This document shows positions 35,732 through 43,779 of a stretch of 48,336 bases of DNA, piece by piece. The stretch lies in IMG/VR virus record IMGVR_UViG_2874968258_000013. The stretch is one strand, 5' to 3'. A model generated the notes under the pieces. It was not told the DNA's origin. It saw only the letters and a program-made list of their open reading frames with translations, and ran no database searches. The position numbers were made by a program, and so were the translations under genes. Numbering within the stretch: position 1 is the first letter of the stretch; each line of letters opens with the position of its first letter. The stretch is from a virus (Duplodnaviria > Heunggongvirae > Uroviricota > Caudoviricetes).

Positions 35732-36153
35732 CCTCGCGCATACAGCCGGGCAGTGACGTCATCGTCTGCGCGGAAATGGACGAACAGTGGGGCTATGTCG
35801 GGGCTAAATCGCGCCAGCGCTGGCTGTTTTACGCGTATGACAGTCTCCGGAAGACGGTTGTTGCGCACGTATTCGGTGAACGCACTATGGCGACGCTGGG
35901 GCGTCTTATGAGCCTGCTGTCACCCTTTGACGTGGTGATATGGATGACGGATGGCTGGCCGCTGTATGAATCCCGCCTGAAGGGAAAGCTGCACGTAATC
36001 AGCAAGCGATATACGCAGCGAATTGAGCGGCATAACCTGAATCTGAGGCAGCACCTGGCACGGCTGGGACGGAAGTCGCTGTCGTTCTCAAAATCGGTGG
36101 AGCTGCATGACAAAGTCATCGGGCATTATCTGAACATAAAACACTATCAATAA
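35650..36153 (+). CDS. insB: IS1 InsB
   Basis: 167-aa ORF within IS1. Confidence 0.9.
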
Positions 36154-36558
36154 GTTGGAGTCATTACCCCAATTTTTTACGTACGTAAACCACTAAATGA
36201 TATTTGCGAGAATGCTACCGAGTATTGAAAACACCACTACAAATACATAAGCAAATCCCAACAAATAACCAACAAATAATTTCCAGTGTTATTTTTAGCC
36301 GGTTTAAATTGAACCTTCAAATTATAGAGCACTTATAAATAACAGCCGTTAATATAAATTGGCTAATAGATTTATTTTTATTCAGCCAAGAGCCATGAAT
36401 AGGATTCGATAGAAAAAAGTTCAGATAAAAATAGAGATCTACTTCACAAATCAAACGAGAAACCAAAACTTACATCTTGAAATAATCACATTGATTAGAT
36501 GAATATTTATCGCGCAGTGACATCATTTTTTAATAATAGTTCAAAAAAAGGGCTCACG

Positions 36559-37641
36559 ATGAAAAAATTAACAGTGGCAATTTCTGCTGTAGCTGCATCA
36601 GTACTGATGGCGATGTCTGCTCAGGCAGCTGAAATTTATAATAAAGACAGTAACAAGCTGGATCTGTACGGGAAAGTTAATGCTAAGCACTACTTCTCCT
36701 CTAATGATGCAGATGATGGTGATACTACTTATGCCCGTCTTGGCTTCAAAGGTGAAACCCAAATCAACGATCAACTGACTGGTTTCGGTCAGTGGGAATA
36801 TGAATTCAAAGGCAACCGCGCTGAATCTCAAGGTTCCTCCAAAGATAAAACCCGTCTTGCCTTCGCTGGCCTGAAATTCGGTGACTACGGCTCCATCGAT
36901 TACGGCCGTAACTACGGTGTAGCATACGACATCGGTGCGTGGACTGACGTCCTGCCAGAATTCGGTGGTGACACTTGGACTCAAACAGATGTGTTCATGA
37001 CTGGTCGCACCACTGGTGTTGCAACTTATCGTAACAACGACTTCTTTGGTCTGGTTGATGGTCTGAACTTTGCTGCTCAGTATCAGGGTAAAAATGACCG
37101 CACTGACGTAACTGAAGCTAATGGTGATGGTTTCGGTTTCTCCACTACTTATGAGTATGAAGGATTCGGTGTAGGTGCAACCTATGCTAAATCTGACCGC
37201 ACTAATAATCAGGTTATCTACGGTAACAACAGCCTGAATGCATCTGGTCAAAATGCTGAAGTATGGGCAGCTGGTCTGAAATATGATGCGAACAACATCT
37301 ATCTGGCTACCACCTATTCTGAAACCCAGAACATGACTGTTTTTGGTAATAACCATATTGCCAACAAAGCACAAAACTTCGAAGTAGTTGCACAATATCA
37401 GTTCGACTTCGGTCTGCGTCCGTCCGTTGCTTACCTGCAATCTAAAGGAAAAGACTTGGGTGCGTGGGGTGATCAGGACCTGGTTGAATATATTGATGTA
37501 GGTGCAACCTATTACTTCAACAAAAATATGTCCACTTTTGTTGATTACAAAATCAACCTGATTGATAAGAGCGATTTCACGAAAGCATCTGGCGTTGCTA
37601 CCGATGATATCGTTGCTGTAGGTATGGTTTACCAGTTCTAA
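36559..37641 (+). CDS. nmpC: prophage-encoded general porin (NmpC/Lc-like, OmpC family)
   Basis: 360 aa from [23 protein letters not shown]; 16-strand porin signature ending ...VAVGMVYQF; apparently intact coding frame. Confidence 0.88.
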
Positions 37642-39085: not shown

Positions 39086-39248
39086 GATTCCTCCTTGCTG
39101 CCAGTCGCAACCATTTTTTATCAACCAGGCTAGCGGTATATCCGAGCAGTGTTGGTATTTCGGATGGCTTCAGCTCAGGCTTACGCTTACGACGATTTGA
39201 TACTCTGTAGATGTGCCCGTTCATGACACGAATAAGCGGTGTAGCCAT
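39078..39248 (-). CDS. ninE: NinE
   Basis: 56-aa [59 protein letters not shown] translated by hand; TAATG overlap with ybcN stop. Confidence 0.75.
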   Translation of the reverse strand: MATPLIRVMNGHIYRVSNRRKRKPELKPSEIPTLLGYTASLVDKKWLRLAARRNHG

Positions 39249-39703
39249 TACGCCTCCTGCTTATCGCGCAGCTGCTGGTATTCACAGCTCTGCGGAATTG
39301 TCAGGTGGCAGCCGATATTCATCGCCCAGGCTTCGACTTTGCACAGGAAGATGTACATCTCGCCGGTTTCCAGCTCTGACGTATGGCGGAGGGATTGGAC
39401 GGTGGTGACCTCGCCGGACACGACATCTACACGGTCTTTGCTTTCGTAGCCGAGATAGGTGTGCTTCATCGCGTCTTTGACCCACTCAGGCGTAGCGAAG
39501 GTCTTGCCGCGGGCGATGAGATATTCGCTGATCTCCGTGTACCACATGTGGCTGAGCGCGTTCTGCGACAGGCTGCGCTTCTCGCGCCACGGCTTAACCT
39601 GCAGGCGTAAGCATTGCCCGGCATCCAGCAATGGCTGAATCTGCTGGCCGATGGCCGCGAAGTTACCGCGATGGAGTTTGATGCCGTCTACTGGCAGAGT
39701 CAT
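39248..39703 (-). CDS. ybcN: YbcN (DLP12-type nin-region protein)
   Basis: 151 aa, recalled YbcN sequence. Confidence 0.82.
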   Translation of the reverse strand: MTLPVDGIKLHRGNFAAIGQQIQPLLDAGQCLRLQVKPWREKRSLSQNALSHMWYTEISEYLIARGKTFATPEWVKDAMKHTYLGYESKDRVDVVSGEVTTVQSLRHTSELETGEMYIFLCKVEAWAMNIGCHLTIPQSCEYQQLRDKQEA

Positions 39704-39967
39704 ACGGCCTCCCTAACGGAAACCGCAGAATGCAGAAAATCGCAGGTGCATTTCTGCATCTGTGACAAGGTGATGAGTTCAGATTGTGGTCGCATTTAAG
39801 TCCCCTTAAATGCGCAGAAGTCACCGGAGTTGTTCAGGCTCCGATGAGAGGATTATGGCGGATTGATTACGATAAATCAAAACTATCTTGAAGCCAAAAC
39901 AGTGATCTTCGCTTTAAAAACCTTGTATACTTTCACCTAATCACAGCCAGAACTATGGATCTAACCA

Positions 39968-40345
39968 ATGACCAACAAAGAAAACAAAGATAAATATATT
40001 AACAAGTTCAAGAAAGAGCTTTCAAAATATATACAACCAACTGCTGGAGTGGACATTCAATTATTTAACTCTAAGGATGGTGGTGGTGTAATTAAAGCCA
40101 CTTTGAATAGAAGTGGAAAAAGAAAATCATCTATTGCTGGTAATTTTACTAAATTAGGTGAGGCAATTACCTCGAGTGGGCAGAGGGTTTTTGGTGGTGA
40201 TCTATCAAATGTGAATTTTTACGGAACAAATACGATTTTTGATGGAGATACAATATTTTTAATTAAATCACCTGATTCAGAGGAGTGGTCATCACAAAAA
40301 GCTTCCAAAGACGTAGAGGGCATCGTATTTGGAGGGAAAAAATGA
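39968..40345 (+). CDS. hypothetical soluble protein (125 aa, Gly/Lys-rich), first gene of a low-GC two-gene cassette
   Basis: AT-rich ORF with no recognisable family; stop overlaps next start (ATGA). Confidence 0.55.
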   Translation: MTNKENKDKYINKFKKELSKYIQPTAGVDIQLFNSKDGGGVIKATLNRSGKRKSSIAGNFTKLGEAITSSGQRVFGGDLSNVNFYGTNTIFDGDTIFLIKSPDSEEWSSQKASKDVEGIVFGGKK

Positions 40346-40770
40346 TTAACATTACTACTAAGGATGGCACTCAAGTCAGTGGTGAAGTAAGAGATCTAGT
40401 AATTCTTCTTGAAACTGATGGAAAAACGGTGTCTGATTATTTGCAGCCAATCCCTCCCAAAAAAGATACACACTGGAGCATGATTTTCATTCCGGTAGCA
40501 ATTTATATACTACTTAATCTTGTATACATTATTGCTCACCCATTATTTCCTGAAAAATATCTAAAAACATCAACATCTATATTTCTATTCATTTCCTTCA
40601 TATTAAGTGCAATAGTAGCATATTTTGTTTTCCATAAGCATAAATCTGCCACTCTATCCATATGCAGCTTAGTGTTCTTAGTGTTAATTGTAGGTGCTAA
40701 CGTAGGGTTTATCAGTTACAGCGACCTAACACAAAAAGCGACGCAAAAATTAGATAGTTTGTCTAAATAA
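40342..40770 (+). CDS. hypothetical small membrane protein (142 aa, soluble N-terminal 45 aa plus 3 predicted TM helices)
   Basis: hydrophobic stretches WSMIFIPVAIYILLNLVYII, SIFLFISFILSAIVAYFVF, LSICSLVFLVLIVGANVGFI; followed by hairpin 40778-40798. Confidence 0.55.
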   Translation: MINITTKDGTQVSGEVRDLVILLETDGKTVSDYLQPIPPKKDTHWSMIFIPVAIYILLNLVYIIAHPLFPEKYLKTSTSIFLFISFILSAIVAYFVFHKHKSATLSICSLVFLVLIVGANVGFISYSDLTQKATQKLDSLSK

Positions 40771-40932
40771 TTATGTTGCCATGCGAAGTATGCATGGCTG
40801 CATGTCTGCCTTCCATTTAAAATGGGCTAAGACCTATAACCCTAAATATTATTCTTTATTATCTTCTTTACCACTTCGGTGATGCTGCCAACTTACTGAT
40901 TTAGTGTATGATGGTGTTTTTGAGGTGCTCCA

Positions 40933-41108
40933 GTGGCTTCTGTTTCTATCAGCTGTCCCTCCTGTTCAGCTACTGACGGGGTGGTGCGTAACGGCAAAAG
41001 CACTGCCGGACATCAGCGCTATCTCTGCTCTCACTGCCGTAAAACATGGCAACTGCAGTTCACTTACACCGCTTCTCAACCCGGTACGCACCAGAAAATC
41101 ATTGATAT
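40933..41108 (+). pseudogene. insA: IS1 insA truncated by IS21 insertion
   Basis: InsA frame diverges after ...QKIID at the IS21 junction. Confidence 0.85.
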
Positions 41109-41209
41109 TGTCAGCGCCAGTGATATAAGACGGTAATTCGCCATTTGGATTGTCCGCTCCACCCAACATGTTGTTTCCTTAAGGTTCTCACACCAGAAAG
41201 GACATCAAC

Positions 41210-43179
<1,970 letters not shown>

Positions 43180-43260
43180 CGAAAGTATTTAGCGGGCATG
43201 AAAATGGCAAATAACGGTCAAACATCGTGGCGTTGACAATATGGCCATGAATGGCGTTGG

Positions 43261-43764
43261 ATGCCGGGCAACTGCACGCATTATGGGCGTTGGCCTCAAC
43301 ACGATTTTACGTCACTTAAAAAACTCAGGCCGCAGTCGGTAACCTCGCGCATACAGCCGGGCAGTGACGTCATCGTCTGCGCGGAAATGGACGAACAGTG
43401 GGGCTATGTCGGGGCTAAATCGCGCCAGCGCTGGCTGTTTTACGCGTATGACAGTCTCCGGAAGACGGTTGTTGCGCACGTATTCGGTGAACGCACTATG
43501 GCGACGCTGGGGCGTCTTATGAGCCTGCTGTCACCCTTTGACGTGGTGATATGGATGACGGATGGCTGGCCGCTGTATGAATCCCGCCTGAAGGGAAAGC
43601 TGCACGTAATCAGCAAGCGATATACGCAGCGAATTGAGCGGCATAACCTGAATCTGAGGCAGCACCTGACACGGCTGGGACGGAAGTCGCTGTCGTTCTC
43701 AAAATCGGTGGAGCTGCATGACAAAGTCATCGGGCATTATCTGAACATAAAACACTATCAATAA
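43261..43764 (+). CDS. insB: IS1 InsB (copy 3)
   Basis: 167-aa ORF in the right part of the split IS1. Confidence 0.85.
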
Positions 43765-43779
43765 GTTGGAGTCATTACC

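Follow-up and report, generated by a model that had tools for sequence, protein, structure and literature searches.

A low-GC two-gene cassette at the replication/nin junction of lambdoid prophages is a conserved mobile operon and a candidate phage-exclusion module

The stretch of DNA analysed here (the window), a viral record of 48,336 nucleotides (nt) from IMG/VR (IMGVR_UViG_2874968258_000013), contains a decayed DLP12-type lambdoid prophage that hosts a small cassette of two genes, which we term gene A and gene B. We show that the A–B cassette is a self-contained, horizontally mobile and strongly conserved two-gene operon. Guided by its sequence, its distribution and the neighbourhoods of its distant relatives, we tentatively favour the view that the pair is a phage-exclusion or abortive-infection device, in which the soluble A protein would act as sensor or regulator and the B protein as membrane effector. 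The general kind of system, a prophage-borne soluble partner with a small membrane effector, is known; both protein families are new.

Both open reading frames (ORFs) are intact and lie antisense to the flanking phage genes, with the nin genes on one side and a stump of replication gene P on the other. A preliminary description of the window, made from its letters alone, had pointed to two AT-rich ORFs on the strand opposite to the nin genes, and composition agrees with it: guanine-plus-cytosine (GC) content is 34.1% in gene A and 33.6% in gene B compared with 50.1% in the nin block (about 34% against about 50% in the flanks), and at third codon positions (GC3) it is 26–28% in the cassette genes compared with 76% in ybcN. 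The stop codon of A and the start codon of B overlap as ATGA, as had also been claimed, and a GGAGGG Shine–Dalgarno sequence stands 5 nt upstream of the ATG of B (Table 1). A program-made list of ORFs gives a longer, 161-amino-acid (aa) B that begins at GTG 40285; we place the start at ATG 40342 because nearly all full-length homologues are 142 aa long and begin with MI(N/I)ITTKDG. Measured against a diverged cassette type whose DNA is ~72% identical to that of the window, the ratio of non-synonymous to synonymous substitution rates (dN/dS) is 0.08–0.09 for gene A and 0.09–0.10 for gene B, with dS saturated; both genes are thus under purifying selection.

For the B protein, a soluble N-terminus of 45 aa followed by three hydrophobic helices had been proposed, and transmembrane (TM) segments were indeed found at residues 47–65, 79–97 and 106–124, behind an N-terminal part of this size. 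Residues 1–36 form a mini-domain that is almost invariant within Enterobacteriaceae, polar residues are conserved inside the helices of the enterobacterial clade (N59 and G118-A-N-V-G122), and the protein further has a basic TM2–TM3 loop and an amphipathic C-terminal tail. Positive-inside charge counts indicate an N-in/C-out topology with a cytoplasmic TM2–TM3 loop, which would place the N-terminal domain of B in the cytoplasm, the same compartment as A. In the A family, a profile alignment revealed family-wide conservation of Y10, G39, F84-x-G86-T87, K100, W107 and D115. One A relative, P0104 (447 aa; loci L019 and L020), carries the A domain at residues 7–119 fused to an HNH endonuclease motif at residues 191–231 (Pfam E = 1.3e-12); its C-terminal half is uncharacterised, and it was found on short contigs from independent read sets. 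The fusion would fit the sensor-plus-swappable-effector pattern seen in defence proteins.

The preliminary description recognised neither protein, and profile searches of Pfam, NCBIfam, PADLOC and PDB were likewise empty, with generic matches only in fold searches. Specifically, A and B each had no Pfam match at E ≤ 1 and no match in NCBIfam or PADLOC (the 2023 set of models, which includes candidate systems); 69 members of the A family had no Pfam match at E ≤ 0.01 and no PDB match; and PDB sequence searches with three profiles gave nothing significant. In PHROGs, each protein matched one family over its full length (Table 1), both labelled 'unknown function', with no other significant match. 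Homology to a housekeeping or phage structural family, which that description had named as speaking against a specialised module, was found for neither A nor B. The A and B proteins were not mentioned in the literature and supplements searched by protein accession. One database labels B as 'VIT1/CCC1 family', for which Pfam gives no VIT1 match at E ≤ 1.

Word-index searches recovered relatives of A and B from Enterobacteriaceae only. An exhaustive HMMER search with an A profile (cut-off E ≤ 1e-3) reached 111 representative clusters, most of them 120–135 aa long and aligned over their full length. Genomes were scanned for distant A relatives with a sub-clade alignment of A, and synteny with A relatives was the only route to distant B relatives. 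Enough downstream sequence was available for 38 loci, drawn from genomes (a Deltaproteobacteria metagenome-assembled genome (MAG), Candidatus Aadella, Bacteroides and a Bacteroidetes MAG), metagenomes and read assemblies; at 37 of these, an A relative (down to ~22–30% identity) is followed directly by a B-like three-TM gene encoding 124–155 aa. The pairing, whose absence from other genomes had been named as a reason to abandon the idea of a module, is thus kept at these distant loci as well as at the enterobacterial ones. The distant B-like proteins have a short N-terminal domain (in most of them with the consensus MK-G--EG---EI-----NNGL---DYL), a basic TM2–TM3 loop (consensus Q-L-R-F-K-N) and an amphipathic tail, and they are homologous to the enterobacterial B proteins (hhalign probability 97.6%, E = 3e-12). 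Across loci, the pairwise identities of A closely track those of B (Mantel r = 0.91, reached by none of 2000 permutations), and we therefore conclude that A and B travelled and diverged as one unit. Comparison of neighbourhoods found no third conserved gene near the pairs. At the remaining locus, the most distant A relative examined (L073 382–1118) has a partner of 117 aa with a longer soluble N-terminus and two C-terminal TM helices only, which may be an alternative membrane partner. A sub-clade of A marked by 'YINNFRR' was not found in IMG/VR viral contigs.

The same compact layout could also be that of a toxin–antitoxin (TA) addiction module, with B as a membrane toxin, A as the coupled upstream antitoxin, and stabilisation of the prophage or island as the main role; we consider this somewhat unlikely. 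Classic protein TA operons likewise consist of two small genes with the upstream partner first and a 4-nt overlap; here, the overlap is ATGA in the window, and 17 of 28 non-redundant distant pairs likewise share 4 nt between the A stop and the B start. One distant pair, on a metagenomic contig (L013), lies beside PIN and DUF4160/DUF2442 pairs; the cassette of the window is still intact in a prophage remnant heavily damaged by insertion sequences (IS); and protein-neutralised, membrane-depolarising TM toxins are documented (PanAT, PMC8832971). However, no DNA-binding domain or known antitoxin domain could be recognised in A with Pfam or NCBIfam, nothing significant linked A or B to a toxin or antitoxin family in Pfam, NCBIfam or PADLOC, and a dedicated antitoxin accounts less well for the A–HNH fusion than a sensor or regulatory domain does. 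In Escherichia coli CV839-06 (L001 12269–13848), IS1 lies inside gene A with gene B intact, an arrangement that the strain tolerates, though polarity likely makes the case uninformative. One IMG/VR contig (L026 6375–6596) holds the converse variant, in which A is intact and B appears truncated after 73 codons; the two natural variants are compatible with several models. The TA explanation also overlaps with the phage-exclusion or abortive-infection device, because many TA modules act in abortive infection too.

The surroundings of the distant pairs may add to the case for that device. In a Bacteroides genome (L016 2969–8922), mod and res of a type III restriction–modification (R–M) system flank the pair, all on one strand and separated by short gaps that would suit co-transcription; in the Deltaproteobacteria MAG (L014), the pair stands immediately upstream of brxA-brxB-brxC; on another metagenomic contig (L048), an AbiTii-domain gene follows it directly; and in a further genome (L068), it is in a prophage, adjoining the integrase. 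Scans of 108 neighbour ORFs returned the PADLOC candidate PDC-S05, HKD+Snf2, DUF4391, EVE, integrases and transposases, along with ordinary metabolic genes and many unknowns. At some loci, pairs are thus inside or beside type III R–M, BREX and AbiTii genes, which would be in keeping with the link to defence loci that the preliminary description had put forward for checking; most other neighbours are housekeeping genes or unknowns. Because the pair is packaged as prophage cargo antisense to the early operon, occasionally has R–M, BREX and Abi neighbours and has a relative with an A–nuclease fusion, a conflict system fits best. With more reserve, we regard it as possible that A and B constitute an undescribed anti-phage system spanning several phyla, in which the A domain (F-x-G-T-N ... 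K ... W ... D) would serve as a new module for sensing infection or for regulation, coupled to a dedicated three-helix membrane effector or, rarely, to an HNH nuclease; one low-GC lineage of the system would then have been taken up by enterobacterial lambdoid prophages as a lysogen-expressed moron.

Three further neighbourhood observations stand on their own. A link to lactococcal AbiT, whose AbiTi has 127 aa, was considered and set aside: AbiTii is directly beside only one distant locus and was therefore counted as neighbourhood evidence rather than as a component. Part of AbiTi has been superimposed on an endoribonuclease structure, according to a review. On two small read-assembly contigs (L011 and L012), the A–B pair directly follows, and overlaps, a gene that by eye has a PriCT-type primase/Rep-like C-terminus, as in plasmid or satellite replication. 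Immediately upstream of another distant pair (L055 944–2613), a P-loop ATPase (GPNGSGKST motif) and an overlapping 218-aa gene were recognised by eye; they resemble an ATPase-plus-partner defence pair, and two weak PADLOC LeoBC matches may correspond to them.

This breadth bears on a second alternative, envelope superinfection exclusion, in which B would block genome entry in the manner of SieA, T4 Imm or HK97 gp15, A would be an assembly or regulatory factor, and no cell death would be involved. A prophage-borne location, an orientation antisense to the early operon and a small inner-membrane protein would all suit it, and known exclusion proteins are small, prophage-encoded and membrane-located (PMC10883804, PMC11436027). 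Nevertheless, occurrence in several phyla (Proteobacteria, Deltaproteobacteria, Bacteroidetes) and in non-prophage R–M and BREX settings is hard to square with blocking the entry machinery of one phage, and tight A–B co-diversification and the A–HNH fusion point to an intracellular activity. The PHROGs matches are to families of unknown function only, and neither PHROGs nor Pfam revealed homology of A or B to the described envelope exclusion families (SieA, Imm, Cor and gp15 types). We consider this explanation very unlikely.

Within Enterobacteriaceae, the cassette behaves as optional cargo. Among 5426 complete E. coli genomes, 46 carry it at ≥99.6% identity and 2 carry a version that is 72% identical, while the adjoining backbone segment is present in 2779; the exact A and B proteins occur on at least 1000 contigs with the source names Shigella sonnei and E. 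coli, so that the window probably derives from S. sonnei or a near relative. Carriers include uropathogenic E. coli such as 536 and F11, and 10 IMG/VR contigs of prophage origin hold the A–B pair. The prophages of 536 and CV839-06 (the latter at icd) have the cassette between P and ybcN. The pair was found at the same junction, always antisense, in DY612 and in assemblies with the source names Klebsiella, Enterobacter or 'Enterobacteriaceae', flanked by the replication/ren block on one side and by NinB, DUF1367 or YbcN on the other. Replication genes (O/P, DnaB, DnaC-like), Q type and the lysis and packaging modules vary among the prophages that carry it, so that recurrence at one position in other lambdoid prophages, another point that had been proposed for checking, holds across differing backbones. 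At the same junction in one enterobacterial prophage (L010 5665–7348), the A–B pair has as neighbours a colicin-like gene, with a weak pore-forming domain, and a colicin-immunity-like gene convergent to it, with a DndB-like gene and an HNH gene further along.

Together, these data fit the moron position assigned in the preliminary description: a discrete cassette of foreign composition (34% versus 50% GC), present or absent among similar backbones (46 carriers versus 2779 backbones), at a junction with variable cargo and in a constant antisense orientation. The lambdoid morons nmpC of DLP12 and gp15 of HK97 are comparable as independent inserts of atypical composition that are present or absent among similar prophages and have promoter-like and terminator-like flanks. 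They also share an orientation that would allow expression from a repressed prophage (for the concept, PMC3594210). The term moron, however, denotes genetic packaging and not function, and the A–B cargo family is undescribed.

Cargo at this junction is not confined to A and B: ybcK and emrE occupy it in O157:H7, and an alpha/beta hydrolase gene does so in two other strains. Such non-defence cargo would suit an accessory membrane function outside phage conflict, for instance in stress tolerance, in signalling, in the handling of ions or small molecules, or as a lysogenic-conversion trait of benefit to the host. Ordinary metabolic genes make up many of the neighbours of distant pairs, and the VIT1/CCC1 label on B, without Pfam support, would point the same way. 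Still, three TM helices without a recognisable transporter fold are a weak basis for it, and the recurrent R–M, BREX and AbiTii settings and the HNH fusion would be unexpected; we judge it unlikely.

The limits of the cassette can be read from the alignments. Homology to the nin backbone of phi80, HK225, HK639 and phage 82 extends to ~39882, and from ~39900 onward the window aligns only with other cassette copies. Palindromes upstream of gene A had been listed among the cassette parts in the preliminary description, but those at 39730–39759 and 39791–39814 fall inside this stretch of homology, in nin backbone shared with phi80, HK225 and phage 82, and hence belong to the backbone. The claim of an own promoter and terminator reads more into the signals than a conserved −10 hexamer and a hairpin can carry. 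On the promoter side, TATACT aligns with the hexamers TATGAT and TATAAT of cassettes in which the A protein shares 76% and 67% identity with that of the window, amid upstream bases that have diverged; a putative −35 element (gTGAtc, 39902–39907) is weak, with an 18-nt spacer, and because of this weakness a generic sigma-70 promoter scan made no call at TATACT. On the terminator side, the downstream hairpin is real and lies at 40773–40803 rather than at 40778–40798; it has a free energy of −18.2 kcal/mol (z −2.6), its stem is kept in all cassette versions with a variable loop, and it lacks a canonical U-tract. It is likely to be a bidirectional terminator-like element. From the homology limits and the positions of the promoter-like sequence and the hairpin, we deduce a mobile unit of ~0.9 kilobases (kb). 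A search of Rfam found no RNA family in the cassette region.

Table 1. Coordinates of the A–B cassette and of neighbouring elements in the window
Feature	Position	Strand	Remarks
Gene A	39968–40345	+	125-aa soluble alpha/beta protein, phrog_18061; founding member of an unannotated family
Gene B	40342–40770	+	142-aa inner-membrane protein, phrog_16940; three predicted TM helices
A/B coupling junction	40331–40345	+	Shine–Dalgarno GGAGGG 40331–40336 inside gene A, then ATGA 40342–40345
Candidate −10 hexamer TATACT	39926–39931	+	from sequence; aligned with diverged cassettes
GC-rich hairpin, stem GCCATGC/GCATGGC	40773–40803		directly 3′ of the B stop, between convergent B and P
ybcN (NinB-position gene), first gene of the nin block	39248–39703	−	context defining the insertion junction
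Remnant of replication gene P, last 29 nt of its 3′ end	40849–40877	−	by alignment to the E. coli 536 prophage; marks the cut in the prophage early region
IS1, halves 40875–41108 and 43239–43779	40875–43779		split by an IS21-family element; context, outside the module
IS21-family element	41109–43238		istA 41210–42382, istB 42379–43179; inserted within IS1; context only

These features allow us to propose how a phage-exclusion or abortive-infection device of this kind could work. As moron cargo at the replication/nin junction, the cassette would be transcribed antisense to the early-right operon of the phage; given this orientation and its own weak putative promoter, it is probably made in the lysogen. 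Translational coupling would supply cytoplasmic A in a fixed ratio to B, and A may bind the N-terminal mini-domain of B, its basic TM2–TM3 loop, or both, holding B inactive or relaying an infection cue. Upon a trigger, B would oligomerise, membrane integrity or potential would collapse, and the invading phage would be stopped.

Several known pairs resemble this arrangement. Lambda RexA/RexB is likewise a prophage-expressed adjacent gene pair of a soluble partner and a small polytopic inner-membrane protein of ~140 aa (RexB, 144 aa). In contrast to RexA (279 aa), A has 125 aa and no DUF4747; B has three TM helices where RexB has four; and the cassette lies at the P/nin junction, antisense to the early-right operon, whereas rexAB is next to cI under PRM. 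Comparison by hhalign rejected homology to the Rex proteins, with probabilities of 0.3% (B family and RexB) and 0.04% (A family and lambda RexA). Tail-assembly inhibition (Tai) systems were set aside too: their genes and locus are different, and only the idea of a non-contiguous operon carries over. PanA/PanT and CptB/CptA (= SdhE/YgfX) also have a small soluble protein encoded beside a small TM protein, with expression of the latter depolarising or damaging the membrane (for PanA/PanT, PMC8832971). Unlike PanA, A has no sequence relation to Panacea/DUF4065 or another antitoxin domain, and toxicity of B is a conjecture. Further parallels are gp30/gp31 of mycobacteriophage Sbash and gp44/gp43 of Gordonia phage CarolAnn, Rex-like two-gene prophage defences with a cytoplasmic and a small membrane component. 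For RexAB, Sbash gp30/gp31 and CarolAnn gp43/gp44, the soluble partner has been proposed to activate the small membrane protein, so that membrane potential is lost (PMC6426596). Sbash gp31 needs a conserved cytoplasmic loop for its function (PMC6426596), and B has a conserved basic TM2–TM3 loop that is predicted to be cytoplasmic too. The Sbash system is set apart by the DUF4747 domain of gp30 and the four TM helices of gp31 (PMC6426596), against an A without a Pfam domain and a B with three helices.

Several observations weigh against a phage-exclusion or abortive-infection role. The enterobacterial clade was found in none of 50,697 sequenced phage genomes and none of 72,556 plasmids. PADLOC-DB v2.0.0 has no family for A or B at E ≤ 1, and 69 A-family members gave four single-member PADLOC matches only (E 0.002–0.009), which is not a meaningful level. 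A recognisable defence neighbour is present at a minority of the distant loci, and many neighbours are housekeeping genes or unknowns. The predicted structures have low confidence (predicted local-distance difference test (pLDDT) score of 58 for A and 68 for B) and give generic structural matches, so that neither a sensor nor a pore fold is demonstrated. The IS1 insertion in gene A of CV839-06 next to an intact gene B argues against constitutive lethality of B without A, although loss of the promoter and of coupling could explain survival. Expression in the lysogen, contact between A and B, harm to the membrane and an anti-phage phenotype are all inferred.

Should the pair prove to act in defence or abortive infection, it would be a very compact system (~0.9 kb) made of two protein families annotated in no database, and would supply a new candidate sensor domain wired to a membrane effector or a nuclease effector. 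If it is instead a plain addiction module, it would still be a new family of protein-neutralised membrane toxins. Given its presence on at least 1000 S. sonnei and E. coli contigs and in uropathogens, the pair could matter for clinical strains, in phage typing, phage therapy and prophage dynamics. As a putative new defence or toxin module, it is a good candidate and cheap to study by experiment, and the replication/nin junction of lambdoid prophages is a cargo hotspot worth systematic mining.

The prophage around the cassette is a remnant. To the left, on the − strand, lie ybcN, ninE, ybcO, rusA, ylcG and quuD, followed by an ompC/nmpC-like porin gene. To the right, alignment with the intact prophage of E. 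coli 536 stops at 40878, where IS1 begins; the truncated early end noted in the preliminary description is thus real, with 29 nt of P left and IS1 adjoining. The early/immunity/integration half of the prophage is missing altogether, with IS1 in its place, and the DNA on the far side of IS1 is unrelated chromosomal sequence of the csc/torI region. Just upstream of ybcN (39715–39825, − strand), two strong hairpins (−35 kcal/mol, z = −3.5) are kept in phi80 (annotated IR4), HK225, HK639 and phage 82 (annotated 'possible regulator-binding site') and probably serve the nin region as a terminator or regulatory element. The porin gene (36499–37641, + strand) is intact and sits between the Q antiterminator and the lysis genes, at the classical nmpC moron position of DLP12, preceded by AT-rich DNA (~30% GC, 36150–36600).

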